64,000 nt of DNA from positions 8,538 to 72,537 of the forward strand of contig JBEHWO010000002.1 in NCBI GenBank assembly GCA_040217695.1, read 5' to 3'. The notes below the pieces were generated by a model. It saw only the letters and a program-made list of their open reading frames with translations, was not told the origin of the DNA and ran no database searches. Below, piece after piece: positions 10,472 to 60,231 of this stretch. Each line of letters opens with the position of its first letter. The stretch's first letter is position 1. A program made the translations under genes and the position numbers. Source of the stretch: Vulcanimicrobiota bacterium (GTDB lineage: Bacteria > Vulcanimicrobiota > SpSt-956 > JAKJGF01).

Positions 10472-10477
10472 TAAAAT

Positions 10478-10495
10478 CGTGATGCGTGATGCGTA
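10478..10495. repeat. Heptamer array (CGTGATG x2.5), a variant of the GTGACGC family
   Basis: cgtgatgcgtgatgcgta, 7 nt after the stop of the upstream gene. Confidence 0.8.
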
Positions 10496-10554
10496 TAAAA
10501 AACCTCATCTGTAAAGACATAGATTACGATAGAACGGGAAAGGAGTAAAAGATA

Positions 10555-10971: not shown

Positions 10972-10989
10972 TAAAAGAAAGGAATTTTT

Positions 10990-11352: not shown

Positions 11353-11356
11353 AACT

Positions 11357-27840: not shown

Positions 27841-27841
27841 A

Positions 27842-28990: not shown

Positions 28991-29390
28991 AATCTTGTTC
29001 CTTTCTTTTCTTATAAAACAGGCGGGCAATATGTGTGGCAGGGCCACGTAACAGTATATATGGCACAGTAGCAAGGACCAGAGCCACAATCAGGGCCTGT
29101 ACCGGGTAAAAAAATCTGAGGGCTATTATCTGATATACAGTATCCAGTATAAAGGCAGCTATAAATATCTTACCAAAATCCTTCCACCCGTGCTGAAGGA
29201 GTCTTTTTCTTGTAGAGGGATTTGTAAGAATTTCCGATAAATAGGCAGGATTACCTTCCCTGGCATCTCTTATGCCGGCTCTTATTGCAAGGATGGAGGC
29301 CATGAGAGGCTGAAGGATCAGTCTCATATGCATTGGCCCATCTAACCGTCCAAGTAACTGTGTTATTCCACGAATTATCATTTCTTCCAT
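28965..29390 (-). CDS. Small membrane protein of unknown function, paralogue of 11357-11743
   Basis: See 11357-11743. Its 3' end overlaps the PFK-like gene by 26 nt. Confidence 0.7.
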   Translation of the reverse strand: MEEMIIRGITQLLGRLDGPMHMRLILQPLMASILAIRAGIRDAREGNPAYLSEILTNPSTRKRLLQHGWKDFGKIFIAAFILDTVYQIIALRFFYPVQALIVALVLATVPYILLRGPATHIARLFYKKRKEQDYEHTENSH

Positions 29391-29411
29391 AGTTTAGTTC
29401 CTCTGAGAAAT

Positions 29412-29446
29412 AGACCGGGAGTTAGATTGACTCTATCTCCCGGTCT
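29412..29446 (-). terminator. Intra-operon hairpin directly downstream of the GRE gene; possible partial terminator
   Basis: agaccgggag / 15-nt loop / ctcccggtct: a 10-bp perfect stem between the GRE stop (29451) and the next gene start (29390). Confidence 0.4.
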
Positions 29447-29450
29447 GTTA

Positions 29451-31928: not shown

Positions 31929-31979
31929 AAATATAATCCTTTCTTTCAGGGGCGCATATCTCACTGCACCCCTGTGTGA

Positions 31980-35963: not shown

Positions 35964-36000
35964 GGGAAATCTCTCCATGATTTCCCTCCCCGTCGGGGAG
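35964..36000 (+). terminator. Two adjacent hairpins after the cyclase gene
   Basis: gggaaatc/tctccat/gatttccc, then ctcccc/gtc/ggggag. Confidence 0.45.
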
Positions 36001-36060
36001 AAGTCAGGAGAGGGGGCGAATTTAATTGTTTATCTTTTAAGGTTTAAAGGAACAGCCAAT

Positions 36061-39000
36061 ATGCAAATCCTGTCATCGCCTTCAAACAGTGTAATTTTTC
36101 TTTTATCTTTCCTCTTGATTTTTCTCATGGTAATAAATATATCTGCCGGAGAAGAGAACCAGGAGCAGCTTTTAAAAAAGTTACTCACCCTCAAAGGAGA
36201 GGAAAGAGCATCTAAAATAAAAGAAAATAAAGATAAACTCAATGAGAACTTTATAGATGAAATTCTCAGAGAAACAAATGAATACTGTAATAATAGAGAA
36301 GCTATCCCTGAATGTAAAGAATTTATGGAACTTGCCCTTGAAATCTCTCTTTTCATAGAAGATAAAAAATCCCATGGGAAAATCCTGCTTTTTAATACGG
36401 TAATAGACATTCTGGAAAGAAAAGGTAAAGATCTGTCTGACCTTAATAAAGCTCTGGAGTTATTTAAAGAAACAGGAGATTTAAAAGGTCAGGCATCATG
36501 CTATATCTTACATGGGATAATACTGCAGGCATGGAATAATCATGAAGAAAGCCTTTCTTATTTCAATAAAGGTCTGGAAATTTATGAGAAAAGAGAAGAC
36601 AGAATAGGTGAAATAAATAGTCTGATAAGAATAGCAGATCTGTATTCTTCTAAGGACGAAGAAGAAGCTCTTGAGGCTTATAACATGGCTCTCGCCATAT
36701 GTGAAAAAAATGAATATTTTCTAAAAAAAATACCTGTCCATCAGCTTATGGCAGGAATATTTTTAAAACAGGGAAGATTTGAAGAAGCCCTTTCCCATCT
36801 CGATATATGTGAACATTTGCTCTCCTCTGTAAAAGAAGAAAAGAGGGATGAAATTTACTATCCTGAGAAATTTGAAACAGAAAGATACTATGACAGACTC
36901 TATCTTCTCATAAATAACTGCAGTGAATACGGCAGGTTATACAGTCAGAGAGGGAAATATGAGGAAGCCCTTAAATATTATCAAAAAGAACTGGAACTTG
37001 CCGGAACTTCAAAATACAGATCAGAAGAGATAAAAGCTCTATGGAACACAGGAATAACTTACGGAAAAATAGGTAAAAAAGAGAATGCTCTGAAATTCTT
37101 CCGCATGTCTCTTAATATTCAAAGTAATGAAATGGAACACAGTCTGAAGAGTGTAAACTATTATTTTCTGGGACGTTATTATCTTCAGGAAATGAATGAT
37201 CTCTATTCCTGCCTGGAATGTTATAAGGAAGGCATTAAATATGCAGAAAAAATTGATTTATCCATATTAAAAGATTTTCTCATAAGTATGGGACTCAGAT
37301 TTACAGGGGAAGCATTTCTCTGTAATGGCGACCTCTCTTCAGCAGAAAAAAATCTGAAAGAAAGTTTTCTTATATATGAAAAAATTCAAAACTATTATAC
37401 ACCAAAGGATGATCATATAGCCCGCATTTATATGGCTCTCGGAGAGGTTTACCGGAAGAAGAAAGACTATGACAGGGCTATGTCATATTATAAAAAATCT
37501 TTAGCGATTACGGAAGAGTATTATTTTACTGCTGCCAGAGCAGATTGTTATGAATACATGGGAGTCCTTTATGAAGAACAGGGTAAATATGGGAAAGCCA
37601 TTAAGCATTACGAAGAAGCTCTTAAAATAAATCAGAAGATAAATAATCCCGACAGGATATGGAAAAATTTCTTCTCTTTAGGAAAGCTCTATCAGAAAGA
37701 AGGAAAGTCACAGGAAGCTTTCAATTATTATAAATCTTCACTCACAGTCATAGAAACTATGAGACAGGAAATGAAAATAGGCGATTTCAAGAAGGATTTT
37801 ATGAAAGATAAAATAGAAGTTTATGAAAAATCCATAGAATTTCTTGCGCAAATAAAAGATTACAATAAAGCTTTTAACTGCAGTGAAAGATGTAAAGGCA
37901 GAGTTTTCCTGGATTTGCTCAATAAAAATAAAGTTGATAAAGTCCATAATATGTCTTCAGAACTTGTAAAAAAAGAAAAAGATCTGTCAGAAAAAATAGA
38001 GATACAGAATGTCAGGCTTGGAGAAGAAGAGCAGAAACCTCCCAAAAAACAGGATAAAGATTTAATAAATCTTCTCTCTTCGGAGCTGAAGAAGTTAAAA
38101 AGTGATTATGAAGATCTTCTGGATGAAATCAGAATTAAAGATCCCGAATATTTATCACTTATAAGTGTTTCACCGGAAAAAGTGGAAGATATTCAGAAAC
38201 TTCTGGATGAAGATACCCTTCTTATCGAATATTTTACAGGTATAGAGAAAACTTTTCTATGGACTGTAACAAAAGATGAACTTCATATGTTTATAATACC
38301 TGTTAAACAGGATGAGTTAGAAAGACAGATTAAAGATTACAGAGAAGAAATTGCAGAACATATGACAGAAGAAAAAATAAAATCGGAACAGTGGAGAGAC
38401 ATGGCAAAAAACCTTTATTCTCTCCTTCTAAAAAAAAGCGAACTTTCTTTCAGTAATAAAAAAAATATTCTCATAGTACCCGATGGTATGCTTAATTATC
38501 TCCCTTTTCATACCCTTGTTGATGACAAAAACAGATGTTTTATAGAAAATTTTAATATTACCTTTATTCCCTCGGGAAGTATATTAAAATACTGTAAAGA
38601 AAAAAATACCTTTTCAAATAATAAACTGATTCTTTTCGCTCTTGGTAATCTTAAAATAAGAGGTTATTCATCTCTCCCTTTTACAGTGGATGAAGTTAAA
38701 TCTATAGGGAAATTATACGGTGAAAAAGAATGTTATATGGAAAAAGATATGACTCTGGAAAAAGTTATTCAAAACTCCGGTAAAGGTGATATTATTCATT
38801 TTGCCACTCACGGTATTCTTGATCCTGAGACTCCATTTTTTTCACATCTTGTCCTTTCGGACTGTGACCTTGAACTTTATAAAATCTTCAGTCTTGATTT
38901 ACATGCCTATCTTGTAACACTGAGCTGCTGTTCAACCGGTCTGGGGAAGATTGTAAAAGGTGATGAACTTACAGGTATTTCCAGGGCTTTTATTTATGCA

Positions 39001-39198
39001 GGCACTCCTTCTGTATGTGTAAGCCTCTGGGATATATCAGATGAGTCCACTTCCATCTTAATGGAAAGATTTTATTCCTATATGAAAGAAGGGAAAGATA
39101 AATCAGAAGCTCTCAGACTCGCAGAACTGGATGTAAGAAAGAAATTTCCCCATCCCTTCTTCTGGGCTCCTTTTATTTTAACAGGAGACTGGAAGTAA
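36061..39198 (+). CDS. Exported TPR-repeat / CHAT-domain (caspase-like) protein
   Basis: The ATG at 36061 gives the leader MQILSSPSNSVIFLLSFLLIFLMVINISAG. Many TPR-like repeats (..AL.YY.K.L.I..). CHAT dyad IIHFATHG and LVTLSCCSTG. Confidence 0.8.
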   Translation: MQILSSPSNSVIFLLSFLLIFLMVINISAGEENQEQLLKKLLTLKGEERASKIKENKDKLNENFIDEILRETNEYCNNREAIPECKEFMELALEISLFIEDKKSHGKILLFNTVIDILERKGKDLSDLNKALELFKETGDLKGQASCYILHGIILQAWNNHEESLSYFNKGLEIYEKREDRIGEINSLIRIADLYSSKDEEEALEAYNMALAICEKNEYFLKKIPVHQLMAGIFLKQGRFEEALSHLDICEHLLSSVKEEKRDEIYYPEKFETERYYDRLYLLINNCSEYGRLYSQRGKYEEALKYYQKELELAGTSKYRSEEIKALWNTGITYGKIGKKENALKFFRMSLNIQSNEMEHSLKSVNYYFLGRYYLQEMNDLYSCLECYKEGIKYAEKIDLSILKDFLISMGLRFTGEAFLCNGDLSSAEKNLKESFLIYEKIQNYYTPKDDHIARIYMALGEVYRKKKDYDRAMSYYKKSLAITEEYYFTAARADCYEYMGVLYEEQGKYGKAIKHYEEALKINQKINNPDRIWKNFFSLGKLYQKEGKSQEAFNYYKSSLTVIETMRQEMKIGDFKKDFMKDKIEVYEKSIEFLAQIKDYNKAFNCSERCKGRVFLDLLNKNKVDKVHNMSSELVKKEKDLSEKIEIQNVRLGEEEQKPPKKQDKDLINLLSSELKKLKSDYEDLLDEIRIKDPEYLSLISVSPEKVEDIQKLLDEDTLLIEYFTGIEKTFLWTVTKDELHMFIIPVKQDELERQIKDYREEIAEHMTEEKIKSEQWRDMAKNLYSLLLKKSELSFSNKKNILIVPDGMLNYLPFHTLVDDKNRCFIENFNITFIPSGSILKYCKEKNTFSNNKLILFALGNLKIRGYSSLPFTVDEVKSIGKLYGEKECYMEKDMTLEKVIQNSGKGDIIHFATHGILDPETPFFSHLVLSDCDLELYKIFSLDLHAYLVTLSCCSTGLGKIVKGDELTGISRAFIYAGTPSVCVSLWDISDESTSILMERFYSYMKEGKDKSEALRLAELDVRKKFPHPFFWAPFILTGDWK

Positions 39199-49421: not shown

Positions 49422-50123
49422 TTAATTACCTTTATTTTCTGTTTCAGTCATAGAAACGGAAAATCTCTTTTTTACCAGAAAAACAATAATAATTAATAAA
49501 ATTATACATGGCATTACTACAATCCAGACTTTTTTGAAGGATTCAAAATAATATTTAAATGTCTCTCCTCCGTAATATATGGCACAGCAGAAAAATGTAG
49601 ACCATAAAAAGGCACTCAACAGATTTATAAGGCCAAATTTAACAGGAGACATCTGGCCGCTGCTGCATACCAGGGCTATGGCTGTACGAAGACCTATGAG
49701 AAACCTGGAAGGAAGAACAGCCCAACCTCCGTAAGTATCTACCATCTTTTTAATCCATGGATACCAGGCCTGAAGCCTCTTCGATTTTGCTATGACCTTA
49801 TCAGTATTACCTCTAACCAGATGAAAATAAATATTGTCTCCAGTAGCTCCTCCTATGGTGGCCATAAGAATTATACCGGGAAGACTCATATAACCCATAC
49901 CGCAGAAAATACATGATACGAAAAGAACTGTCTCACCTTCAACAATAGTACCGATAAGAACTGCCAGATACCCCAGAAGAGAAAGAAACTGTTTATTTTC
50001 ATTACCACCATTCTGAAACATGGCAAAAACATAATCTTTAAACGATGCTCCGTATAAAGACAGTAAAACTATAACTATAAGAAGCACTATTACAATAATC
50101 ACATTTTTTATATTTTTATTCAT
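49422..50123 (-). CDS. DedA-family membrane protein
   Basis: The ATG at 50123 was chosen. G(T)IVEGETV..the DedA core, and 5-6 TM segments. Confidence 0.7.
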   Translation of the reverse strand: MNKNIKNVIIVIVLLIVIVLLSLYGASFKDYVFAMFQNGGNENKQFLSLLGYLAVLIGTIVEGETVLFVSCIFCGMGYMSLPGIILMATIGGATGDNIYFHLVRGNTDKVIAKSKRLQAWYPWIKKMVDTYGGWAVLPSRFLIGLRTAIALVCSSGQMSPVKFGLINLLSAFLWSTFFCCAIYYGGETFKYYFESFKKVWIVVMPCIILLIIIVFLVKKRFSVSMTETENKGN

Positions 50124-50142
50124 AAAAACAAGCCTTTCCACC

Positions 50143-50170
50143 CGTCACGCGTCACGCGTTACGCGTCACG
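50143..50170. repeat. Heptamer array CGTCACG x4
   Basis: ccc gtcacgc gtcacgc gttacgc gtcacg aattt. Confidence 0.9.
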
Positions 50171-50173
50171 AAT

Positions 50174-50596
50174 TTACCATATCCACTTGAAACCTGCTAT
50201 CATGACAATATATCTTACAATTCTCCCGCTGTAAGTATAAATTATAAAATCTCTCAATCTGATGCCTATTATTCCCGATGCAAGAACAATAGGGTCTCCT
50301 ATACCGGGAATCCAGGACAGAAGCAGTATGGGACTTTTATATTTGTTCACTCTCTCTATGGCTTTTTTTATACCGGGATTATTTTTATCTACAGAAAAAT
50401 ATCTTTTTATTATATAATTATCACACATTACACCCATAAAATAAGTTGCAGTAGAACCGAGACAGTTTCCTGCCGATGCGGAAAGGAAACAGAGAACCGG
50501 ATCCATACCTTTGACTAAAGCAACGATAATAAAACCTTCAGATGCGAAAGGAAGTATGGTGGCAGATAAAAAACACCCCGTAAATAAATAGAACAT
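50174..50596 (-). CDS. YqaA/DedA-related (SNARE-associated domain) membrane protein
   Basis: The ATG at 50596 gives MFYLFTGCFLSATILPFASEG.. The longer ORF would read through heptamer repeats. Confidence 0.65.
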   Translation of the reverse strand: MFYLFTGCFLSATILPFASEGFIIVALVKGMDPVLCFLSASAGNCLGSTATYFMGVMCDNYIIKRYFSVDKNNPGIKKAIERVNKYKSPILLLSWIPGIGDPIVLASGIIGIRLRDFIIYTYSGRIVRYIVMIAGFKWIW

Positions 50597-50600
50597 GCAG

Positions 50601-50672
50601 GTGAGTAGCAGCCGGTGAACAGTGAGTAGAGGATTACCGCTATTCACTATTCACTATTCACTATTCACTATT
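50601..50672. repeat. Two abutting heptamer arrays: GTGAGTA-type (degenerate) and CACTATT x5
   Basis: gtgagta gcagccg gtgaaca gtgagta ga.. then cgctatt cactatt cactatt cactatt cactatt. Confidence 0.85.
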
Positions 50673-52097
50673 TCACCTCCAGAGAAAATCTTCTTTCCAC
50701 ATATTATTCTTCTTCAAAGATTTTATCATCAAACTGTCATGTTTACCGTGGGCCCATGTATCTGCCATATCGGACAGATCTTTATACTGGCCGTATGAGC
50801 CGTAATTTCCTCTGTATCTGAAATATTGAGACGGTCTCGCAAAAAACCTGGCATAGGCATGTTCAAGAAGGAATTTCATCTCTTCATTTGATATACGGGG
50901 ATGATGAAAAGTAAGATTGAGGCCGTCAAATTTTTCCCAGTCAGACTCAAAAATTTCATCCCTTATCTCTTCATAAAATTTCGTTCCCGGAAAGGGAGTC
51001 AGTATTTTATAGGAAGCAAGAGTAGTATCCAGTTCAAGAGAATATCTCGTTGTTTCCACAACACTCTTTACCGTATCTTTCAGATAACCGAATATATAAA
51101 AAGCCTGTGTCTGTATTCCCTTTTTCCAGCAATATTTTATCATATTTCTCTGATGTTCGTCAGGGACGGGCCGCCTTCCGAGTTCTCTCATAGATTCTTC
51201 ATTTATTGACTCAACGCCGAAAGTCATTCTCTTCAATCCGAGCTTCTTAAGCCTCTCAAGGAGAGGTATATCTACTGTATCAAGCCTTGTTTCTATTTCA
51301 AAATATATATCCAGCCCGAGTTTTCCCAGTTCTTTCATAAATTCTTCAATTCTGTCTTTTCTCCCTGTAAAATTTGAATCCCGAAATATTATATAATGAC
51401 TTCCGAAAAGCCTGTAATTTCTTTTTATTTCTTTTATAACCCTGTCTATCGATTGAAATCTGTATGAACCGCCTATACGATGGGGGCAGTAACTGCACAT
51501 TTCAGGACAGCTTCTGCTGCTTACCATCGGTATGACTTTACTGATAGATTTCATTGTCCCCGGTAGAGCATTTTTTGTTTTATTAAATATTTCCCAGTCG
51601 GAAAAAGGAAGACTGTCCATATCAGCAATCTCAGGAGAATCTATCATACCTGAAAAATTTTCGCTGAAAGCAAGTTCCATACATGCTGCTTCCGGCTCTC
51701 CCTTTATAATAAAATCTGCGGCAGAAGAAAAAAGATGAGGGAGATGGGTGGCACAGAGCCCTATAAAACCTGTTTTACCATGCCTGTTTTTTTCTTTAAA
51801 TTTTCTTGCCCAGTACCGTTCATTTTTATAATCTACAAGAGAAGACAATATTATGGCCACATCACCTTCCGGCACGGGGCCGTCTGTAAATATAACTTCA
51901 TGACCTGCCCCTTTAAAGATAGACGCAAGAAGAGACATTTGAATACTGGGAATATTCTGATAGGCTCTCCTTACCCATTCGAGCCACAGGGTTGTTATGG
52001 AGAAAGCTTTAAATCTGGCGCCGAAACCGCCTACAATGGTATCTTTATTGACAAAACCATTTTTTCCTTTTATATCTGCAAGAACTATTTTTGACAT
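50673..52097 (-). CDS. B12-binding-domain (class B) radical SAM enzyme
   Basis: The N-terminal region is Rossmann-like and resembles a cobalamin domain. Radical SAM motif SRSCPEMCSYCPH. 474 aa. Confidence 0.75.
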   Translation of the reverse strand: MSKIVLADIKGKNGFVNKDTIVGGFGARFKAFSITTLWLEWVRRAYQNIPSIQMSLLASIFKGAGHEVIFTDGPVPEGDVAIILSSLVDYKNERYWARKFKEKNRHGKTGFIGLCATHLPHLFSSAADFIIKGEPEAACMELAFSENFSGMIDSPEIADMDSLPFSDWEIFNKTKNALPGTMKSISKVIPMVSSRSCPEMCSYCPHRIGGSYRFQSIDRVIKEIKRNYRLFGSHYIIFRDSNFTGRKDRIEEFMKELGKLGLDIYFEIETRLDTVDIPLLERLKKLGLKRMTFGVESINEESMRELGRRPVPDEHQRNMIKYCWKKGIQTQAFYIFGYLKDTVKSVVETTRYSLELDTTLASYKILTPFPGTKFYEEIRDEIFESDWEKFDGLNLTFHHPRISNEEMKFLLEHAYARFFARPSQYFRYRGNYGSYGQYKDLSDMADTWAHGKHDSLMIKSLKKNNMWKEDFLWR

Positions 52098-52114
52098 TAT
52101 TTACCTCTTTAAAT

Positions 52115-52199
52115 AGTGAGAAGTGAGAAGTGAGAGGTGAGATGAAAGAGTAGAGAATTATGACTTCTCACTTTTCACTTTTCACTTTTCACTTTATTC
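52115..52199. repeat. Inverted pair of heptamer arrays: (AGTGAGA)x4 ... (TTTTCAC/TCTCACT)x4, forming an imperfect long hairpin
   Basis: agtgaga agtgaga agtgaga ggtgaga tgaaaga gtagaga ..attatgac.. ttctcac ttttcac ttttcac ttttcac. Confidence 0.85.
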
Positions 52200-53420
52200 A
52201 TATCTCAAAGCATCGATAGGATTTAACTTGGAAGCCCTCAGAGCAGGATATACACCTGCTATTAAACCAACAAGAGCAGAGAAGAAACAGACAAAAAACA
52301 TATAATAAAGCGGAACTTCAGCAGGAAGATCTATCATATAACTTAGAATTCTGGAAAAAGAGATACCGATGATTATGCCTATAAGAGCACCTATTAATGT
52401 GAGTATAATCGATTCCATAAGAAACTGTATGAGAATATCCTGGGTTTTTGCTCCCACGGCTTTTCTTACTCCAATTTCTCTGGTCCTTTCACCGACAGAC
52501 ACAAGCATAATATTCATTATGCCAATGCCTCCGACGAGTATTGATATGGAAGAAATTCCTCCCAGCATAAGAGTAAGTATTCTGCTTATTACCGAAAGAA
52601 GAGAAAATATTTCTGTCTGAGAACCTACGGTAAAATTATTTTCCTTATCCTTTTTAAGATTATTTCTTTTTCTTAAGAGATCTACAATTTCATTTTTGGC
52701 GGAGTTCATACTGTCAGAATCATTCGGCTGAACAAGTATATTTGTTACATTCCTGGTTTTTCCCATACTCAATTTCTTCTGCATGGACGAAAGAGGAACA
52801 AAAATCGTATCGTCCATATCCTGTATGATAATCATACCTTTTTCCTGAAGTATGCCTATTACTTTAAAATTGGCTGTATCTACCTTTATGATTTTACCTA
52901 TGGGGTCTTCTCTTCCGAAGAGCTTTTTCACAACAGTTCTTCCCAGGAGACAGACACTTCTCTGGGAATTATAGTCCTGAATATCGAAAGGCTTGCCTAT
53001 ATCTACAAACCAGTTTCTTACAACATAATAATCGGGTGTGGTGCCGGAAATACTTGTTCTGTATTCGGATTTTTTATATTTACATGTTACGGAATCGCTT
53101 AATACAGGCACTGCATATCTTACGGAAGGACATTCTTTTTCTATGACTTTTGCATCTTCCATGGACAGATTACTTTTCACAAGGCCTGTAAGCCTTATGG
53201 CCTGACTGTCTCCGCCGCCGGGAAGAACAGTTATAAGATTGGGGCCGAGACCGTTAATTTTACTGCTTATGGCAGCTTCGGCACCGATACCGACAGAAAC
53301 AATACATATAACAGAAGCCACACTTACAGTAACTCCCATCATACTTATAAGGCTTCTCACAAAATTATCTTTAAAATTGTTTTTCGCAATAATCAGATTT
53401 TCAAGTATTTTAAGAAACAT
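52194..53420 (-). CDS. MacB/FtsX-type ABC transporter permease (MacB_PCD plus FtsX domains) with no adjacent ATPase
   Basis: 408 aa: TM1, a large periplasmic domain, then 3 C-terminal TM segments with ..RTREIGVRKAVGA...I..QFL.ES. Confidence 0.8.
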   Translation of the reverse strand: MFLKILENLIIAKNNFKDNFVRSLISMMGVTVSVASVICIVSVGIGAEAAISSKINGLGPNLITVLPGGGDSQAIRLTGLVKSNLSMEDAKVIEKECPSVRYAVPVLSDSVTCKYKKSEYRTSISGTTPDYYVVRNWFVDIGKPFDIQDYNSQRSVCLLGRTVVKKLFGREDPIGKIIKVDTANFKVIGILQEKGMIIIQDMDDTIFVPLSSMQKKLSMGKTRNVTNILVQPNDSDSMNSAKNEIVDLLRKRNNLKKDKENNFTVGSQTEIFSLLSVISRILTLMLGGISSISILVGGIGIMNIMLVSVGERTREIGVRKAVGAKTQDILIQFLMESIILTLIGALIGIIIGISFSRILSYMIDLPAEVPLYYMFFVCFFSALVGLIAGVYPALRASKLNPIDALRYE

Positions 53421-53432
53421 AATTTTAGATGA

Positions 53433-53462
53433 CGTGACGCGTAACGCGTGACGCGTGACGCG
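53433..53462. repeat. Heptamer array CGTGACG/CGTAACG x4, 12 nt upstream of the permease start
   Basis: cgtgacg cgtaacg cgtgacg cgtgacg cgagga. Confidence 0.9.
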
Positions 53463-53491
53463 AGGATTTTATAGATTATACGTGTTTTACG

Positions 53492-53525
53492 CATACAGGG
53501 GTACGGCGCACCGTACCCCTGTATG
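53492..53525 (-). terminator. Perfect 15-bp GC-rich hairpin downstream of the Tes-like gene
   Basis: catacaggggtacgg / cgca / ccgtacccctgtatg. Confidence 0.6.
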
Positions 53526-53546
53526 ATGATTGAATTCTATTCCTGA

Positions 53547-55106
53547 TTATACAGGACTTTCCACCTTTTCAGGGATATCAGAACTCTTTGCAGGTCTTCC
53601 GAACTGTTTTTCTATATCCTGTCTGTATAAATTATTATAGGTACAGAAAGGTATGAGTCTTCCGTCCGGCACTGCATAATGTATTACACATCTGCTGGTT
53701 CTCTCCACATCAATATTATAGAGATCCATAAAATGCATATTACTCACAGTGATTGTATTACGGTTGAGTCTGTCAACAGTTTTTCTCTCACCTGTTGTGA
53801 CAATCTCTTTAATGAGATTTACAAAGGTATTTACATTCAGATCTGACGGTAAATTCTTTGTTTTTACAAACTTTGCAATATTTGTGACAAAATTATAAGA
53901 AATCTTCAGTTTGCTTGTACCTTTATCGAGTAAAGTTGCCTGTTGGTCAAGGAAATCGACAATCCCTGCCATATCAAGGAATCTTGTGTAAGGTATAAGT
54001 TTTCCGTTATCTACATAGGTAAGACAGTGACTTCCGCAGTGAGGATGACATGAAACATTTTTAAAACGTTTCATCTGCATCTTCCATGAATTATAGAAAT
54101 GAAGGAATTTGGATGTAAAGGCATAGGGCAGGAAATCATCTGCCGTAATAGCTCCGTCTGTCTGTTCTTCAAGGAGTCTGAAACCATCGGGAGTAGTTAT
54201 TCTCTGTTCTACAAGATCCTTGAATTCAAGATCCATCCTTCCCATAAAGGAAACCTGCTGGAAATTAACGGTTTTTATGACATCTTTATTATCGGCACAG
54301 AACCTTACTATATCACCTAGTTGATGGTCGTTTACACCTTTGGCCACTGTAACAACGAGGAAGAAGCAGTTATCTGCTATTTCTTTACTCTTAAATCCGG
54401 CCTGTCTCATATTCTCTATGGCTTTCATCTTTATCGGAAGAATATCAAAGCCTCTTGTTTTTAAATATACGTCGGGAGTAGTGCCGTCAAACTGTAAATA
54501 TACCTTTGTAAGTCCGCTGTCTATAAGTTTTTTACAGTAATCGACACTCTTTGCCAGTTTAATGCCATTTGTATTGATATAAATAGCAGTATAACCGACC
54601 TCTTTTGCAAGGGCAAGTATTTCAGGCAGATCTTCTCTGACAGTCGGCTCACCGCCTGAGAACTGTATTGTTGTAAGGGGAGCAGGGTTTACTTTCTTTG
54701 CATTTTCAAGCATAAACCTTATCTCTTCCATAGTAGGTTCAAATACATGTCCTCCTTCATTGACCTTGGCAAAACAGACAGGACATCTCAAATTACATCT
54801 GTTTGTAATATCCATTATGAGCATATAGGTTCCCGAATGATGTTCTTTACATATACCGCAGTCAAGAGGGCATCCCTTTATTTTATCATTATGCGGTGTC
54901 TCAAACCCCTTATCTGTTACGCTGTAATAATTGAATCTTTTAAAAGATTTCGGGTCGGACCAGTAAATATCAAGAGTTTCTCCATGTTCGGGACAATGCT
55001 TTTTCATCCATATCTTATCATTTTCTTCATAAACATGGGCTTCCAGCATCTTTCTACATGTGGGACACATGGACCCGGTTTTAAAATCAACTTTATTGTT
55101 ATCCAT
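53547..55106 (-). CDS. Radical SAM enzyme of the MJ0619 / tetraether-lipid-synthase (Tes, GDGT-MAS) family
   Basis: N-terminal zinc ribbon CPTC..CPEHG, GCPLDCGICKEH, radical SAM motif DITNRCNLRCPVCFA, GGEPT, and the C-terminal block MHFMDLYNIDVERTSRCVIHYAVPDGRLIPFCTYN. The family is recalled from memory and not searched. Confidence 0.7.
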   Translation of the reverse strand: MDNNKVDFKTGSMCPTCRKMLEAHVYEENDKIWMKKHCPEHGETLDIYWSDPKSFKRFNYYSVTDKGFETPHNDKIKGCPLDCGICKEHHSGTYMLIMDITNRCNLRCPVCFAKVNEGGHVFEPTMEEIRFMLENAKKVNPAPLTTIQFSGGEPTVREDLPEILALAKEVGYTAIYINTNGIKLAKSVDYCKKLIDSGLTKVYLQFDGTTPDVYLKTRGFDILPIKMKAIENMRQAGFKSKEIADNCFFLVVTVAKGVNDHQLGDIVRFCADNKDVIKTVNFQQVSFMGRMDLEFKDLVEQRITTPDGFRLLEEQTDGAITADDFLPYAFTSKFLHFYNSWKMQMKRFKNVSCHPHCGSHCLTYVDNGKLIPYTRFLDMAGIVDFLDQQATLLDKGTSKLKISYNFVTNIAKFVKTKNLPSDLNVNTFVNLIKEIVTTGERKTVDRLNRNTITVSNMHFMDLYNIDVERTSRCVIHYAVPDGRLIPFCTYNNLYRQDIEKQFGRPAKSSDIPEKVESPV

Positions 55107-55247
55107 AATTTAACTTAATTACTATCTGAAATACTTACGTCACAGTTTCGTAACGAATATCCAGTAGTTTACACCTCCTTAAAATTAAAACGATTTCACA
55201 TTTTATCATATTTCTTATAGAAATATAGAGATCCTTTTTAAAAATAT

Positions 55248-56051
55248 TTAAAATATTTTCTTTATCAAAGACGGAATTAAAAGTCCTAAAAAAGTAATCC
55301 ATGTAATTATATACGGAGTTAAAAGAACCTTACGTTTTTCGACCCAGTCAGGGCAAACAGGTTCTTTTATTTTAAACTTGCTGGACGGTCCGCCCATAAA
55401 AAACGTCTTGTAACATTCAACAACCATTCTCTCGGAGCCGATACAGGCAAAAAACAGCAGAGAATATTCACCCGTTACAAGAGGTGACAGAATACCTCCC
55501 CATATGCCGCCAAAGATAAAACTCCTGGGGAATTTCACAATATCAAACCCCTCTATAGGAGCATCTTTCCACATGCCTCCCAGAGAAGAAGCAAGTCCGC
55601 TCATAGCCCCCCAGAAAATACAGGTCAACAAATGGATCCTTATAAAATTCCCGTATATTTCAGGTATGCAGAACATGGCATAAATCAGTCCGAGGAAACC
55701 GATACCGAGAAAAATTCTGAGTATTTTGCCGTCTACGATTTTTCCGAGATAATGAAATTTTGTAGGTATATTATATTTTTCCTGGTTTTCTTCTCTGAAA
55801 AATGCTTTGAGAGTCTCTGTAAATACTCTTTCCAGAGCGATTACAAAAACAAAAAAGAGAGCCAGATTAATTTCTTTATAACCGTGGATCTTCAGAAGAA
55901 AAGGCATTATCAGCCCGAATACGGCACCGACAATTATACTTCTTATATATTTTTTTATAATAAACGGTTCATAGGGAGAATCTTTATATCCACCCCAGCA
56001 GGATGAATGTAATCCTGCTATAGAGCCTACCAGAACATAGATTAATAACAT
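55248..56051 (-). CDS. Polytopic membrane protein of unknown function (about 8 TM)
   Basis: 267-aa hydrophobic ORF, 24 nt downstream of the CDP-alcohol phosphatidyltransferase gene. Confidence 0.6.
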   Translation of the reverse strand: MLLIYVLVGSIAGLHSSCWGGYKDSPYEPFIIKKYIRSIIVGAVFGLIMPFLLKIHGYKEINLALFFVFVIALERVFTETLKAFFREENQEKYNIPTKFHYLGKIVDGKILRIFLGIGFLGLIYAMFCIPEIYGNFIRIHLLTCIFWGAMSGLASSLGGMWKDAPIEGFDIVKFPRSFIFGGIWGGILSPLVTGEYSLLFFACIGSERMVVECYKTFFMGGPSSKFKIKEPVCPDWVEKRKVLLTPYIITWITFLGLLIPSLIKKIF

Positions 56052-56075
56052 CAGGAATCTCTTCAGTATAAGAAT

Positions 56076-56738
56076 TTAGTGGATTACACATTCATGTGTT
56101 TCCACGGAAGAAGAAATTTTCTCTTCTTTTTCAGGGAGAGCTTTCTCTTCTTTTTTCAATATAATAGAATATTCTATTAACATAACAATGACTGTTATAT
56201 GTGAAAGAATTGTTATCAAAATAATACTGTAGCTGAAAAACACAGGTTTTATAAGTCCGAGTATAAGACCGACCCATATAATCAAACCTCTGTCTCCCCT
56301 GCCTACAAGTTTAAAAGGCTGCTTTTTTGTGAGTATTCCGCCTACATTTGACACAACACTTATGAGAACACTGCCCCATATAGATAAAATACCCCATATA
56401 AGAGAAGGCATAAGAACAGGTTCCATAGAAAGACCTGCAGCAAGTCCGATAAAACCTTCCACATATTTGTCTACTGTAACATCAAGGAGACGACCAAAAG
56501 GAGTCGTAGTTTTTTTGAGTTTCGCTATTTCTCCGTCCATTATGTCACAGCATGCCATAGCAAGTCCAAAAACCATAGCCCAGAAATAGGAACGGAAATA
56601 TATCATTAAAGACATGGAAAAACCCATAAAAAGCCCTATCATAGTCCACGTATTCGGTGTAAAACCCCATCTGGAAAGACGGTCTGCCACTTTAAGATAA
56701 TATTTCCTGTGGGCACTCTGTCTGAGTTCGTAAATCAT
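56076..56738 (-). CDS. CDP-alcohol phosphatidyltransferase family protein
   Basis: Exact family motif D-x2-DG-x2-A(K)-x8-G-x3-D-x3-D in CDIMDGEIAKLKKTTTPFGRLLDVTVDK. 6 TM segments. Confidence 0.85.
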   Translation of the reverse strand: MIYELRQSAHRKYYLKVADRLSRWGFTPNTWTMIGLFMGFSMSLMIYFRSYFWAMVFGLAMACCDIMDGEIAKLKKTTTPFGRLLDVTVDKYVEGFIGLAAGLSMEPVLMPSLIWGILSIWGSVLISVVSNVGGILTKKQPFKLVGRGDRGLIIWVGLILGLIKPVFFSYSIILITILSHITVIVMLIEYSIILKKEEKALPEKEEKISSSVETHECVIH

Positions 56739-56910
56739 AATTATCTCCTAATAATCACAGAAAGCTTTAAGAGCATCTTTTTTTGAGTAAGAACAAAGTA
56801 AAAAAGTAAATTGGAAGTATTATATCACAGGGAATTTTAAAAAGCAACCATATTTTATTATGAGAAGGGTTTCATAAAATTATGTAGAAAATATTTTATT
56901 CTGTAAAACA

Positions 56911-57000
56911 TTACTGTGGTGAGCATAAAATATATGCTCCCGTGACGCGTAACGCGTGACGGGAGGAAAAATTTTATTACATGCTTATGCTCAGGTCAGA
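56911..57000. mobile_element. MITE-like repeat element, copy 4
   Basis: ttactgtggtgagcataaaatatatgctcccgtgacgcgtaacgcgtgacgggaggaaaaattttattacatgcttatgctcaggtcag. Confidence 0.7.
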
Positions 57001-57195
57001 AAAAGGGAAAAACTTCATAAATCGAAGACAATTTTAAATAAAAAACTATTGCTCTCCAGAGATTTTTCCTGTATAATCTACAATTCGAGGTATTTTTAAC
57101 AGTTAAAATCTGGTTTCTGGTTCCGGGATTCAGGTTTTTAAAATGCAACCCGGCCCATATAACCAAATTCTAAGATTCCTGTAATTTTAAAATTT

Positions 57196-58548
57196 ATGAA
57201 CAAAAAAATTATATTATTACTATCGATTTTCATATTTTTGCTTACCCCGTATATTAAAGCATCGGAAAAATCTCTAACACTGGAAGAATGTATAAACTTT
57301 GCCCTGGAGAATAATTCTTCCATAGAGGTGGCACAGAAACAGATAGATGTAACCGGTGCAAACATAAAAGAGATTAATGCAGGAAAATATCCCAGAATAT
57401 ATGTATTGGGTTCTGCAAGAAAGTGTGAGTATCAGACAGGTTATATGGATTTCAGCCTGTCACCTCCAAACCCGGACTTAACGGACGGCAAACAGATATA
57501 TTTAAACAGTGATAATTTCGATGCATCTATGGCAGTAGAAATAAGTCAGACTGTATATGACGGAGGAGACATACACATTAAATTAATCGCTGCACAGCTT
57601 GAAAAAGAAAATGCAGAAATCAACATGGAATCGGTAAAGGAAGATGTATCATATAAAGTAAAATTGGCTTTTTATTCTGCTCTTAAATCAAAAGACCAGT
57701 TCCGTCTATCAGAAGAAAATGTAAAAACCGGTGAAGAGCATTTAAAACTTGCAAAAGCACTCTTTGATGCCGGTCTTGTGCCGCAGGTAGATATGGTAAC
57801 AGCAGAAGTGGCCCTTACAAAAGCCTCCATGCTTTTTTCTCAGGCTCAGAACGAATATAATAAATCCGTTAATAATCTCAATACTGCAATGGGAAGAGAA
57901 CTGGAAGATACCGTTGATATTTACGGCGACAGCTCATACATTCTTTTACATATAGATGAAAAATCTGTGATGGAAAGAGCACTTACGGGCAGATGTGAAA
58001 TAAGACAGCTTAACCTGGCCCTCTCCAACCAGCAGGACAGTGTAAGTAATATTGAAGCCCTTATAAAACCTACAATAAATGCAAATGCAGGTTATATAGT
58101 AAGAAACAACAATTCTATCGGAAGAAAAGGGTTTTATTTCGAAGTTGGTTTAAATTTACCTATATTCAATGTAGCAGACAGGGCAGAACTTGAGAAAATC
58201 CGGGCTAAAACAGCAGAAGCGGAAAAACAGAAAGAACTGCTGGTATCAACTGTAAAACTTGAAGTAAAAAATGCCCTGCTTGATGTAAAAAGTGCGGAAA
58301 GCTGTATAGAAATAGCAGAAAAAGAAGTGGAACTGGCATTGCTTCACCTGCAGATTTCCGAAGGAAAATATAAACAGGGCGCAGGAACTATAATGGAAGT
58401 AACAAATTCACAGTTAAATCTTATGAAATCAAAAACCGATTATATCAATGCAATCTATAATTATAAAATAGCTCTGGCAACTGTCGAGCATGTAGCCAAT
58501 ATTAAGCTAGAAGACGTCCGGCAAAAAAATGATTTAACAGATAAATAA
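57196..58548 (+). CDS. TolC-family outer-membrane efflux protein
   Basis: Signal peptide. SLTLEECINFALENN. Two OEP repeats with coiled-coil heptads. Confidence 0.85.
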   Translation: MNKKIILLLSIFIFLLTPYIKASEKSLTLEECINFALENNSSIEVAQKQIDVTGANIKEINAGKYPRIYVLGSARKCEYQTGYMDFSLSPPNPDLTDGKQIYLNSDNFDASMAVEISQTVYDGGDIHIKLIAAQLEKENAEINMESVKEDVSYKVKLAFYSALKSKDQFRLSEENVKTGEEHLKLAKALFDAGLVPQVDMVTAEVALTKASMLFSQAQNEYNKSVNNLNTAMGRELEDTVDIYGDSSYILLHIDEKSVMERALTGRCEIRQLNLALSNQQDSVSNIEALIKPTINANAGYIVRNNNSIGRKGFYFEVGLNLPIFNVADRAELEKIRAKTAEAEKQKELLVSTVKLEVKNALLDVKSAESCIEIAEKEVELALLHLQISEGKYKQGAGTIMEVTNSQLNLMKSKTDYINAIYNYKIALATVEHVANIKLEDVRQKNDLTDK

Positions 58549-58604
58549 CTGAGTACCGAGATCTGTCATTCCCGCTTTCAAAGACCAGCGGTACAAGGGC
58601 CTCG

Positions 58605-58632
58605 CGTCACGCGTCACGCGTCACGCGTCACG
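58605..58632. repeat. Heptamer array CGTCACG x4, 24 nt upstream of the HlyD-family start
   Basis: cctcg cgtcacg cgtcacg cgtcacg cgtcacg attc. Confidence 0.9.
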
Positions 58633-58656
58633 ATTCTTATATAAGGGGGCATTGAA

Positions 58657-60231
58657 GTGCGACATATATTGAATTGCATATTATTCCTGACATTTATAAT
58701 AATATTATCAGGGTGTACAGAACAGAAAACCGACACACAGGATCTCAAACCGGCAGTAAAAGGCGATATAAATGAAGTGGTATCCGCATCGGGTATGGTT
58801 CTTACAAAAAAAGATCAGGTCGCTGTAACTCCTAAAATTATGGGTACAGTTGAGAAGATTTGTTTCGAAGAAAACTGCGTGGTAAAAAAAGATCAGATTC
58901 TTGTAGAGCTTGATAAAACAGATCTGTTGAAACAACTTCAGCAGGCACAGGCAAGCCTTGCAGTCGCACAGGTGCGTGTCAAACAGGCAGAAACGACAGT
59001 AGCACTTCAGCCGGACGAAATCAAAGGAAAAATAGCACAGGCAGAAGGTGCTTACAGAGCGGCACAGAAACAGGTAGAACAGTTAAAAATACAGATTGCT
59101 TCCCAGGAAGAACAGCTTAAAGCAAAAGTAACAGACGGAGAAATACTCCTTAAAGCAGCACAGGATAATATGGCACAGGCACAGGGACAGGTTCCTGTAA
59201 TAGAAGGGGAAGCATCGGCAGGATTATCCCAGGCACGTCTGGCAGTAGATACTGCAAAATCAAATTATGAAAGACAGAAAAATCTGTACAGTCAGGGATT
59301 TATATCCAAACAGGATTATGAAATATCGGAAAGTCAATATCAAAAAACATTAAATGATTATAAAATAGCAGAAGAAAAAGTAGAATCAGCCAGACTTCAA
59401 AGCCAGCAGGTCAGAAACGGTGCTGAAACTCAGGTAAAACAGGCAGAAGAAGCTCTGAGACTTGCCAGAACCTCTCTTACAAAGCAGAAAGAAGCTTCAA
59501 AAAAGCAGATAGATATTGCACAGGCACAGGCAGATCAGGCATATTCCGCTCTGGAAAGTGCCAGAACTCTCTATGGTCAGATAACCCTCCGTGAACAGGA
59601 AGCAGAAGCTGCAAGACATAATGTCACACAGTTAGAGATAGGCATAGAACAGATAAAAGATCAGATTAATAAGACTTCCATTAAAGCACCTGTAAGCGGA
59701 ACTATTATACAAAAGCAGGTAGTGCCGGGGCAGGCAGTTTCTCCTACCTTTCCCGTTGCCATCATAGCAAATCTGGACAGACTCATCATACAGGCTATGG
59801 TAGATGAAGGGGATATAGGTAAAGTGAAAGAACACCAGAAGGTCTTTGTAACAACCGATAATTTCCCTGAAGAAAAATTTTCAGGAGAAGTAATTATGGT
59901 GGCCTCTGCCGCTTTCGAAGGCACCAAATCAATAGAAAATGTTGCAAATTATAAAGTCACAATAGCACTGGATAATACTAAAGGACTGCTGAAGATGGGC
60001 ATGAATACCTATAATGATATAGTAGTGGCACAGAGAAAAAATGTACTTACTGTTCCAAACATAGCCATTCATCAGAGTAACGGGAAAAGTGTCGTTTATA
60101 TACCGGCTTCAAACGGACATGTAGAAAGAATAGTAGAAACAGGACTGAGTGACAATGAAAATACTGAAATAATCTCCGGTTTATCGGAAGGAGAAAAAAT
60201 AATAGCCGGTTCTGTGATAAAAAGTGAGTAG
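58657..60231 (+). CDS. HlyD/MacA-type periplasmic adaptor with a very long coiled-coil hairpin
   Basis: GTG start after AAGGGGG. Lipobox LSGC. Biotinyl-lipoyl-like halves (V.KDQILVELD / IKAPVSGTIIQK) flank about 250 aa of Q/A/E-rich coiled coil. Confidence 0.8.
   Translation: MRHILNCILFLTFIIILSGCTEQKTDTQDLKPAVKGDINEVVSASGMVLTKKDQVAVTPKIMGTVEKICFEENCVVKKDQILVELDKTDLLKQLQQAQASLAVAQVRVKQAETTVALQPDEIKGKIAQAEGAYRAAQKQVEQLKIQIASQEEQLKAKVTDGEILLKAAQDNMAQAQGQVPVIEGEASAGLSQARLAVDTAKSNYERQKNLYSQGFISKQDYEISESQYQKTLNDYKIAEEKVESARLQSQQVRNGAETQVKQAEEALRLARTSLTKQKEASKKQIDIAQAQADQAYSALESARTLYGQITLREQEAEAARHNVTQLEIGIEQIKDQINKTSIKAPVSGTIIQKQVVPGQAVSPTFPVAIIANLDRLIIQAMVDEGDIGKVKEHQKVFVTTDNFPEEKFSGEVIMVASAAFEGTKSIENVANYKVTIALDNTKGLLKMGMNTYNDIVVAQRKNVLTVPNIAIHQSNGKSVVYIPASNGHVERIVETGLSDNENTEIISGLSEGEKIIAGSVIKSE

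Follow-up and report, generated by a model that had tools for sequence, protein, structure and literature searches.

A bacterial Tes/GDGT-MAS homologue with a conserved CDP-alcohol phosphatidyltransferase partner: a candidate membrane-spanning lipid locus in Vulcanimicrobiota

The DNA analyzed here, called the window, is a 64,000-nt stretch of contig JBEHWO010000002.1 (positions 8,538 to 72,537, forward strand) from a Vulcanimicrobiota bacterium (GTDB SpSt-956; JAKJGF01; assembly GCA_040217695.1). Between 49422 and 56738 its minus strand encodes seven co-directional genes separated by gaps of 24 to 141 bp (Table 1), and an ORF check bore out this layout, which a first-pass annotation had claimed, with every ORF at the expected coordinates. 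A convincing minus-strand terminator was not found between the block genes, and a promoter-like site, TTTACA-17-CATAAT (56907 to 56879, minus strand; a consensus match only), faces the operon from upstream. Profile searches confirmed most of the family assignments made earlier (PF01066, NF045702, MacB_PCD plus FtsX, Radical_SAM, and two VTT domains), and overstated were the descriptions of the transferase as "textbook" and of the second radical SAM enzyme as carrying a cobalamin domain. The host is bacterial, as had been claimed, judging from both the window genes and the relatives of the locus, which occur in MAGs labeled Vulcanimicrobiota or Eremiobacterota, and the window holds two outer-membrane markers, the OEP and an SLH-domain protein. 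The host is uncultured and anaerobic, and its lineage comes from anoxic engineered and natural habitats.

Table 1. Genes and features of the locus, with window coordinates
Feature	Coordinates	Strand	Basis
CDP-alcohol phosphatidyltransferase	56076-56738	-	PF01066 and inositol-phosphate-type NCBIfam matches
TM267, 267-aa integral membrane protein, 8 helices	55248-56051	-	AF2 model; no Pfam family
Tes/GDGT-MAS homologue, radical SAM, 519 aa	53547-55106	-	NF045702, 7TOL alignment, ligands
MacB/FtsX-type ABC permease without fused or adjacent ATPase	52194-53420	-	MacB_PCD and FtsX
rSAM2, second radical SAM enzyme, N-terminal Rossmann-like domain	50673-52097	-	PF04055, AF2 fold
Small VTT-domain membrane protein, YqaA-like size	50174-50647	-	PF09335
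VTT/DedA-family membrane protein	49422-50141	-	PF09335
Divergent intergenic region, lipid operon versus OEP/MFP genes	56739-57195		Promoter-like site
OEP, TolC-like outer-membrane efflux protein	57196-58548	+	PF02321, 187 bits
MFP, HlyD-type periplasmic adaptor	58657-60231	+	HlyD_D23 and HlyD_3 matches

Radical SAM enzymes of the Tes family couple the ends of lipid tails. The window Tes scores 564 bits against NF045702, clearing the curated equivalog cut-off of 450 by 114 bits, while the model for the sister family TrsS reaches 366 bits against a cut-off of 490, about 200 bits below the Tes score; other members of its clade score 563 to 583 bits on NF045702. It also matches the PF23545 zinc ribbon (66 bits) and PF04055, and its translation contains all of the motifs first quoted for it (CPTC...CPEHG, GCPLDCGIC, CNLRCPVC, and a further block of 36 letters). 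Aligned with the archaeal enzyme MJ0619 (PDB 7TOL), residues 6 to 507 match 21 to 509 with 466 bits and 44% identity over 502 residues. The order of domains is that of the archaeal Tes/GDGT-MAS enzymes (MJ0619, PDB 7TOL/7TOM; MA_1486): a zinc-ribbon/rubredoxin domain, an N-terminal cluster domain, the radical SAM core, and a C-terminal cluster domain.

We aligned 122 Tes homologues and took the ligand identities of GDGT-MAS from PMC9433317. The window Tes and every full-length member of its clade conserve all 15 metal-ligand positions, each of which is invariant or present in 121 of the 122 homologues; a single N-terminally truncated clade member (P0005) lacks the first two cysteine ligands. 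The radical SAM CX3CX2C motif (C104/C108/C111, equivalent to C98/C102/C105 of MJ0619) is invariant in all 122, and the rubredoxin-like CX2CX20CX2H site (C14-X2-C17-X20-C38-X2-H41) has spacing identical to that of C9/C12/C33/H36 in GDGT-MAS. The ligands of the N-terminal auxiliary [4Fe-4S] cluster, C79/C83/C86 and H89, align with C73/C77/C80 and H83. At the C-terminal auxiliary [4Fe-4S] site, associated in GDGT-MAS with a C-S intermediate and a labile methionine ligand, M457 corresponds to Met439, and C357, C473, and C488, the only other cysteines invariant in all 122 homologues, would by that invariance serve as the cluster ligands. Judged by profile, alignment, and ligands, the protein is a full and true member of the Tes/GDGT-MAS family, in agreement with the initial assignment to the MJ0619 family. 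GDGT-MAS purified from Escherichia coli has bacterial ester phospholipids bound in its active site, and in our literature search no bacterial Tes homologue turned up that had been tested biochemically.

The transferase matches PF01066 (CDP-OH_P_transf) with 44.6 bits (cut-off, 22). Its top four NCBIfam matches are AIPS (90 bits), PIPS (60), IPCT/DIPPS (45), and the Bacteroides PIPS (34), models that all have inositol-1-phosphate as the acceptor, and its orthologue in the most distant relative of the locus (L031) finds the same best inositol-phosphate-accepting models, again with AIPS above the bacterial PIPS. It falls below every equivalog cut-off, scoring about half of that for AIPS (NF040950; 90 versus 180) and 60 versus 170 for PIPS (NF045883). 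The signature reads D65-x2-DG-x2-A-K-x8-G-x3-D-x3-D, with four aspartates and both glycines kept and a lysine in place of the canonical arginine in the transferases of the entire clade; "textbook" therefore claims too much for this enzyme, which shares fold family and signature with AIPS and PIPS (structures 5D91, 6H53, and 6WM5) but departs from them in score and in this substitution. In L031 the transferase gene adjoins one for inositol-phosphate synthase (MIPS), an adjacency typical of phosphatidylinositol pathways. By sequence, the protein is most like enzymes that transfer inositol phosphate, namely archaetidylinositol-phosphate and phosphatidylinositol-phosphate synthases.

The gene arrangement recurs in independent assemblies at 75 to 99% identity and is neither chance nor an assembly artifact; the neighborhood is conserved in related genomes. 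Its invariant core is the pair of transferase and Tes genes, which is kept down to the 62% relative L031 and co-diverges (65% identity for the transferase and 62% for Tes in that relative). A CDP-alcohol transferase within 8 to 10 kb of Tes was found in none of 143 other Tes loci, and none of these shares the window gene set. The proposed tie of Tes to a head-group transferase is thus borne out by co-divergence and by absence elsewhere, and the link is real and specific in the window clade. TM267 and the MacB permease, with the divergent OEP and MFP, are retained down to 75% identity, and in one 75% relative (L028) rSAM2 and both VTT genes are missing. The "seven-gene block" is modular and no single fixed unit: the rSAM2 and VTT genes also occur paired in loci without Tes.

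TM267 has an internal two-fold repeat among its eight helices, and its AF2 model is confident (pLDDT 96.3, pTM 0.93). A Foldseek search of the PDB with this model gave no relative (best E value 0.41, TM at most 0.31). The family spans 336 representative clusters and 468 genome hits, and most relatives of TM267 accompany oxidoreductases (GMC, Gfo/Idh/MocA) and not Tes. Within the window clade TM267 stays adjacent to Tes down to 75% identity, and in Vicinamibacteria it adjoins distant Tes-family genes. TM267 is linked to VTT proteins through domain fusions, found in both orders, and through adjacency, with a VTT gene downstream in 14 to 16 of 75 unrelated loci. The roles that we suggest below for TM267 and the VTT proteins would follow from guilt by association.

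The two VTT proteins score 49.5 bits (50174-50647) and 40.1 bits (49422-50141) on PF09335 (cut-off, 33.9). Both thus carry the domain expected of the YqaA and DedA proteins named initially, with the subfamily labels resting on size and on weak DedA and UptA NCBIfam matches of the latter protein. The smaller VTT gene accompanies rSAM2 in L002, L004, L025, and L027, and in L038, a locus without Tes, an rSAM2 homologue is followed by a 53%-identical homologue of the larger VTT/DedA protein. rSAM2 and the two VTT genes are a separable accessory module.

rSAM2 had been called a class-B, cobalamin-domain enzyme. Its AF2 model (pLDDT 85.8) does combine a Rossmann-like N-terminal domain with a radical SAM core in a class-B-like fold, but its one Pfam match is PF04055 (CX3CX2C at C197/C201/C204); the Pfam B12-binding family (PF02310) gave no match, and among its homologues only 3 of 120 have one. 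The closest fold is that of AprD4 (6fd2; TM 0.72 to 0.77), with cobalamin-dependent methylases at TM 0.53 to 0.63, and the NCBIfam scores for HpnJ (114 bits; cut-off, 578) and BchE (100 bits) lie far under the cut-offs. It shares the two-domain architecture of AprD4/HpnJ-type enzymes, with their B12-like N-terminal domain, yet is only 18% identical to AprD4. The idea that rSAM2 might methylate the lipid is unsupported because the best structural match, AprD4, is cobalamin independent; AprD4 and HpnJ, the best profile match, both carry out sugar or cyclitol chemistry.

The permease matches MacB_PCD (148 bits) and FtsX (80 bits), and no ABC ATPase was found in the 64-kb window. None of the other partners of Tes is as well conserved: the permease has 88% identity where Tes has 85%, and 79% where Tes has 75%. 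The first-pass annotation did not include the divergent genes for OEP and MFP (57196-60231), though they are kept with the block. The OEP gene holds the same divergent position in L002 to L005 and in L025 to L030, with the MFP beside it in all relatives of at least 75% identity; L031 has an OEP-like gene (26% identity) divergent from the cluster, which lacks MacB and the MFP. Conservation of OEP and MFP falls far short of that of the lipid genes (46 to 56% versus 76 to 88% identity); the two may be unrelated neighbors.

In a neighbor-joining tree the window Tes clade is monophyletic, long-stemmed, and apart from the Acidobacteriota homologues. It groups with the Acidobacteriota/Pseudomonadota clade, to which it is only 37% identical, in 1 of 200 bootstraps. 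In 139 of the 200, the sister group consists of archaea or of a long Dehalococcoidia branch. The closest sequences outside the clade are archaeal. Identity to MJ0619 is no higher for the window Tes (44%) than for acidobacterial homologues (42 to 44%). The host phylum does not appear among those named as Tes carriers in the available parts of two surveys (Zeng 2022, PMC8941075; Black Sea MAG survey 2025), and a literature search gave no paper connecting it with Tes.

Close as it is to the archaeal enzymes in its metal ligands, the window Tes differs from them in its bacterial host, in the lack of genes for archaeal lipid backbones close by, and in its fixed place beside transport genes and a CDP-alcohol transferase, which was found in 0 of 98 archaeal loci. 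The Tes homologues of Acidobacteriota, Planctomycetota, Chloroflexota, and other phyla resemble it in having bacterial carriers and a proposed coupling of fatty-acyl or alkyl tails, as set out in the available parts of the same two surveys, but they are a separate lineage with other gene neighborhoods. In bacteria, the route to tail-to-tail coupled lipids that experiments have confirmed is that of Mss and Ger, under anoxic conditions, and the known producers that use Mss lack Tes homologues (Sahonero-Canavesi 2022). We would expect an analogous physiological outcome from the window locus, although Mss belongs to a different radical SAM family and the window has no Ger/PlsA-type gene. The Acidobacteria genomes chosen for that work yielded no mss homologues (Sahonero-Canavesi 2022); the rSAM2 family, large and uncharacterized, is by contrast abundant in Acidobacteriota, on which it is centered.

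Our preferred reading, which we hold to be reasonably though not strongly probable, is that the locus is a compact pathway, made up of a core operon plus an accessory module, for a membrane-spanning (bolaform) inositol-phosphate glycerophospholipid in a diderm anaerobe. The transferase would move the lipid moiety of a CDP-activated glycerolipid onto myo-inositol-1-phosphate, as its best family matches and the MIPS gene in a relative suggest. Tes, with a single rubredoxin-like iron besides its three [4Fe-4S] clusters, would use SAM-derived radicals and a cluster-sulfur-bound intermediate and, acting on its substrate as GDGT-MAS does, would link two lipid tails at their terminal carbons, giving a membrane-spanning lipid of the tetra-ester/ether type or a macrocyclic lipid. 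TM267 and the VTT/DedA proteins may handle or translocate lipids such that head groups come to lie on both faces, and the MacB permease, together with the divergently encoded MFP and OEP, may carry the product or a related lipid toward the outer membrane. rSAM2 would be an optional tailoring enzyme, for which modification of the head group (cyclitol or sugar) is no less likely than methylation of the tails. Lipid-backbone, fatty-acid, ether-forming (Ger/PlsA/Elb), and isoprenoid-ether genes were not found in the 64-kb window, and the substrate is therefore unconstrained by it. The most likely substrate would be the host's own fatty-acyl or alkyl phospholipid, possibly iso-branched, giving a product of the brGDGT or diabolic-acid type. 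The available part of PMC8941075 puts bacterial Tes homologues forward as brGDGT synthases on the ground that iso-acyl chains have the same termini as phytanyl chains.

The tight co-conservation of the MacB permease with Tes, the position held by OEP and MFP in all relatives of at least 75% identity with an OEP-like gene divergent even in L031, and the outer-membrane markers would also be consistent with a specialized lipid, bolaform or macrocyclic, that is produced for export instead of a bulk inner-membrane lipid, the core operon and MFP/OEP acting as an envelope-lipid export system. A MacB-type DevBCA-TolC system that exports heterocyst glycolipids offers an analogy. We consider this unlikely, given a permease with no ATPase in the window, the loss of MacB and MFP from the L031 cluster, the much faster divergence of OEP and MFP than of the lipid genes, and a MacB-like gene near Tes in only 3 to 4 of 143 other Tes loci. 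Quite unlikely, in our view, is a product made of true archaeal-type isoprenoid lipids, in which Tes would couple the phytanyl chains of archaeol-type diethers to GDGT or macrocyclic archaeol, the transferase would be an archaetidylinositol-phosphate synthase acting on CDP-archaeol, and both would have come from archaea. The tree, the archaeal nearest neighbors of the Tes clade, and the preference of the transferase and its L031 orthologue for AIPS over bacterial PIPS point that way. Against it, genes for G1P dehydrogenase, GGGPS, UbiA-type DGGGPS, CarS, and geranylgeranyl reductase were found neither in the 64-kb window nor in the flanks of the relatives, the AIPS match reaches half of its curated cut-off, the identity to MJ0619 does not exceed that of acidobacterial homologues, and no bacterium has been shown to make isoprenoid GDGTs according to the available part of Zeng et al. 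(PMC8941075).

A bolder version, which we find very doubtful, would have the lineage gain an archaeal cassette for head groups and tail coupling and make isoprenoid, inositol-phosphate-capped tetraethers with the AIPS-like transferase, the new-fold TM267 and the VTT proteins being the translocation machinery that a monolayer lipid needs. Halobacterial Tes homologues occur in strains without detectable GDGTs, as given in the available part of PMC8941075, the related subfamily TrsS, whose model still gives 366 bits here, has other roles, and TM267 and rSAM2 are mostly found elsewhere without Tes; the Tes homologue could on these grounds have been recruited to another substrate or reaction, with the membrane genes unrelated and their conserved neighborhood coincidental. 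That seems highly improbable to us in light of the wide lead of the Tes score over both its cut-off and TrsS, the retention of all GDGT-MAS cofactor ligands, and a transferase-Tes pair that co-diverges and persists to 62% identity amid changed surroundings.

Bacterial branched tetraethers underlie palaeotemperature and pH proxies in wide use, and their producers and enzymes are only partly known; the literature that we searched gives no tie between the host phylum and tetraether lipids. An isoprenoid product, should it prove to be one, would directly breach the lipid divide between archaea and bacteria. The locus also brings forward two uncharacterized families as candidates for lipid handling or tailoring, TM267 and the AprD4/HpnJ-like radical SAM family abundant in Acidobacteriota. 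With an intact enzyme, a permanent transferase partner, and an expressible size, it is a compact test case for bacterial Tes.

The seven minus-strand ORFs that the first-pass annotation grouped as a membrane-lipid block are all present, separated in the order of transcription by 24, 141, 126, 96, 25, and 32 bp, and their products were assigned to families by Pfam and NCBIfam profile searches (see table). Promoter and terminator scans of the block returned mostly background-level matches that do not delimit an operon. Genes for a lipid backbone, fatty acids, ether formation, or isoprenoid ethers were not found in the 64-kb window, nor was any ABC ATPase gene to match the presence of the MacB permease. 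Elsewhere in the window, a GC-rich stretch (0.47 to 0.55 against a background of ~0.37) is probably a horizontally acquired island, and a glycyl-radical pair, a TPR-CHAT protein, and two paralogous channels bear no relation to the Tes block.

Features of the window, with profile assignments or contents
Feature	Coordinates	Strand	Assignment or contents
CDP-alcohol transferase	56076-56738	-	CDP-OH_P_transf
TM267	55248-56051	-	no Pfam/NCBIfam family match
Tes	53547-55106	-	zinc ribbon PF23545, Radical_SAM, NCBIfam "tetraether lipid synthase Tes"
MacB permease	52194-53420	-	MacB_PCD + FtsX
rSAM2	50673-52097	-	Radical_SAM as sole domain
Small membrane protein	50174-50647	-	VTT domain
Small membrane protein	49422-50141	-	VTT domain
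OEP	57196-58548	+	
MFP	58657-60231	+	
GC-rich segment	11691-18653		radical SAM/SPASM protein with C-terminal SEC-C motif (anaerobic sulfatase-maturase-like), DUF1254/DUF1214 protein, sulfatase, unassigned 389-aa ORF
Glycyl-radical pair	26917-31964		PFL-like glycyl-radical enzyme (837 aa), activase
TPR-CHAT protein	35977-39198		1073 aa
Paralogous channels	2066-3652, 24585-26159		MscS type, about 525 aa each

Judged by its sequence, the Tes ORF encodes a genuine Tes, and the central call of the first-pass annotation was correct; every motif quoted there occurs in the 519-aa product. The protein scores 564 bits on the NCBIfam Tes model (curated cut-off, 450) and aligns end to end with the crystallized archaeal enzyme GDGT-MAS (MJ0619, PDB 7TOL; 466 bits, 44% identity over 502 residues). 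We took the ligand positions from the structure paper (PMC9433317) and mapped them onto an alignment of 122 sequences, in which the window Tes and every other clade member of full length keep each metal-ligand position; one truncated member (P0005) lacks the first two cysteines. These positions comprise a rubredoxin-like site (C14, C17, C38, and H41, with the same X2/X20/X2 spacing as in GDGT-MAS), an N-terminal [4Fe-4S] cluster (C79, C83, C86, and H89), the radical SAM cluster (C104, C108, and C111), and a C-terminal [4Fe-4S] cluster with M457, the equivalent of Met439, for which the remaining three invariant cysteines C357, C473, and C488 are the presumed further ligands. On the model of the sister family TrsS the protein scores ~200 bits below its Tes score. 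Neither a non-lipid clade nor a missing ligand speaks against the family assignment. A member of its 90% cluster has already been named "tetraether lipid synthase Tes" automatically by the NCBI pipeline.

The locus belongs to a bacterial host, and its Tes forms a lineage apart. A chimeric contig, or one of archaeal origin, is rejected because several independent assemblies show the block between the same bacterial neighbors. The window carries markers of an anaerobic diderm bacterium, including an outer-membrane efflux protein, an HlyD-type adaptor, and an SLH-domain protein, along with a glycyl-radical enzyme with its activase and an acetate kinase; an Rfam scan of the whole window gave no matches and no rRNA. 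Loci near-identical to the window lie on contigs labeled Vulcanimicrobiota/Eremiobacterota, with some labeled "Synergistia" or "Bacillota." The public labels of this lineage conflict: the 85 to 99% loci (L002-L005 and members of the P0002 cluster) come from MAGs labeled Vulcanimicrobiota, Eremiobacterota, "uncultured Synergistia," "Bacillota," and "bacterium ADurb.Bin363."

Homologues of the window Tes form a small clade at 62 to 98% identity, after which identity drops to ~47%, a level at which all named matches are archaeal. A neighbor-joining (NJ) tree of 74 sequences recovered this clade as monophyletic in 200/200 bootstraps, as it did the homologues of Acidobacteriota/Pseudomonadota, and joined the two in just 1 of 200. 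In 139/200 bootstraps the window clade had as its sister either archaea or a long branch of Dehalococcoidia, a position that the NJ tree does not fix, and long-branch attraction seems to lie behind the frequent pairing with Dehalococcoidia. The split grouping the clade with archaea appeared in 64/200 bootstraps and does not resolve the donor lineage. With 44% identity to the characterized MJ0619, the window Tes is no nearer to that enzyme than are the homologues of acidobacteria (42 to 44%) or Sulfolobales (41 to 45%).

The block is modular among its relatives. Where Tes is 85 to 99% identical (L002-L005 and L025-L027), all seven genes are found wherever the contig is long enough (those of L003 and L005 stop inside or ahead of rSAM2), together with the divergent OEP and MFP genes. 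At 75% (L028-L030), the transferase, TM267, Tes, MacB, OEP, and MFP are kept, rSAM2 and both VTT genes are missing, and the same ComM-like gene comes directly next. At 62% (L031-L033), only the transferase and Tes are kept, with an inositol-phosphate synthase ahead of them and a 328-aa SPASM/twitch-like radical SAM gene in between (best profile match for that of L031, the PTO1314 family, 110 bits). Transferase and Tes co-diverge, at 65% and 62% identity, and the MacB/FtsX permease is the most highly conserved partner of Tes. Divergence is much faster in OEP and MFP than in the lipid genes (46 to 56% versus 76 to 88% identity); in L002, a 99% relative, OEP alone falls to 67% between flanks of 92 to 99%, which suggests that this region is a mosaic. 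The same relative carries two toxin-antitoxin-like genes inserted exactly at the MacB/rSAM2 junction (L002:12949-13574), marking a module boundary between these genes; the insert holds overlapping ORFs of 86 and 135 aa with no NCBIfam match, where the window has 96 bp. The rSAM2-VTT pair also occurs without Tes, in L038 (59% and 53% identity). A tblastn search of the block proteins against 8 to 10 kb around Tes in 143 other loci (98 archaeal and 45 bacterial) gave no match to the transferase or TM267, a single weak VTT match (43 bits, L022), and only sporadic MacB-like genes. The core of the proposed neighborhood is thus conserved, but the seven genes do not travel as a unit, with rSAM2 and the VTT genes absent at 75%.

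The acceptor of the transferase is probably inositol-phosphate. Its best four NCBIfam matches, archaetidylinositol-P synthase (90 bits), phosphatidylinositol-P synthase (60), IPCT/DIPPS (45), and Bacteroides PIPS (34), all use an inositol-1-phosphate acceptor, each score being under its cut-off, and in the PDB the enzyme is related to AF2299-type and PIPS structures. The signature is complete save for an Arg-to-Lys change fixed in the clade. A word-based homologue search returned 15 proteins only and did not separate an archaeal from a bacterial origin. In the most distant clade member (L031:1464-5839), the orthologue shows the same profile pattern and adjoins the inositol-phosphate synthase, in the order synthase, CDP-alcohol transferase, 328-aa radical SAM, Tes. 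Bacterial gms and tes genes have been reported to lie in clusters together, so this radical SAM protein could be a candidate chain-bridging enzyme of the Gms type.

The second radical SAM enzyme, rSAM2, had been read as a class-B enzyme with a cobalamin domain. Its fold is class-B-like (model pLDDT, 85.8; invariant CX3CX2C motif at C197, C201, and C204), but it does not resemble a cobalamin methylase most closely: the best full-length structural match is AprD4 (TM 0.72 to 0.77), with cobalamin-dependent methylases at 0.53 to 0.63. AprD4 is a cobalamin-independent diol dehydratase. Among profiles, HpnJ matches best, with 114 bits where the cut-off is 578. AprD4 and HpnJ, the nearest characterized relatives, both work on head groups that are sugars or cyclitols (PMC13459092), and for this reason head-group tailoring would be no less plausible than tail methylation; we found nothing specific in favor of a tail C-methylase. 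The rSAM2 family is large and uncharacterized (45 to 50% identical), with named members in Acidobacteriota/Terriglobia. There (L034-L037, about 9300-11410) Tes is not adjacent, and the homologue always comes after a conserved gene of ~217 aa that has no Pfam match; in L036 it is followed by a DegT aminotransferase, AsmA/YhdP, and a VTT gene. To our knowledge, most cultured Acidobacteria that produce iso-diabolic acid have neither Mss nor Tes, and this family may therefore deserve a look as a candidate lipid enzyme.

TM267 is modeled as eight helices (pLDDT 96.3) with an internal two-fold repeat and conserved charged motifs; comparison with the PDB gave no structural match (best E, 0.41), and no Pfam model covers the family. 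The family comprises 336 representative clusters, and a genome scan built on 6 close sequences gave 468 matches, with bacterial titles for all listed loci. In 57 to 59 of 75 other loci TM267 stands last in an operon after a GMC and a Gfo/Idh/MocA oxidoreductase, and in 14 to 16 a VTT-domain gene lies directly downstream. Two members are TM267-VTT fusions, one in each domain order; fusions to DUF3047, RecX, or unannotated extensions are uninformative or probably spurious. These associations tie TM267, we infer, to VTT/DedA-type lipid handling. An inositol link as a general rule for the family is rejected, since an inositol-phosphate synthase is nearby in just 1 of 75 loci. Three Vicinamibacteria (Acidobacteriota) loci, L193, L212, and L236, form an independent TM267/Tes-family association, with a distant Tes-family gene 1 to 4 kb from the TM267 homologue (L212:7572-9659, minus strand; a sub-threshold 316 bits on NF045702 and 207 on TrsS), and TM267 is weakly tied to Tes-family chemistry.

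For the Tes product, we favor a predicted fatty-acid-based membrane-spanning lipid over an isoprenoid one, which we consider quite improbable, on three grounds: GDGT-MAS produced in E. coli binds bacterial ester phospholipids (PMC9433317); iso-acyl and phytanyl termini are chemically similar (PMC8941075); and Mss, the sole confirmed bacterial coupler, acts on ester and ether lipids bearing head groups.

Tes homologues from bacteria have been widely catalogued before, though they are of a biochemically unverified kind, and we found no report of a biochemical test of any of them. Nor did we find a paper connecting this phylum with Tes, or one on a cluster of Tes, an inositol-phosphate transferase, and DedA. 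Among bacterial Tes lineages, that of the window is a third and independent one; its lipid-handling genes form a distinctive set that is modular in part, and its locus offers an unusually clean experimental handle together with two uncharacterized partner families.
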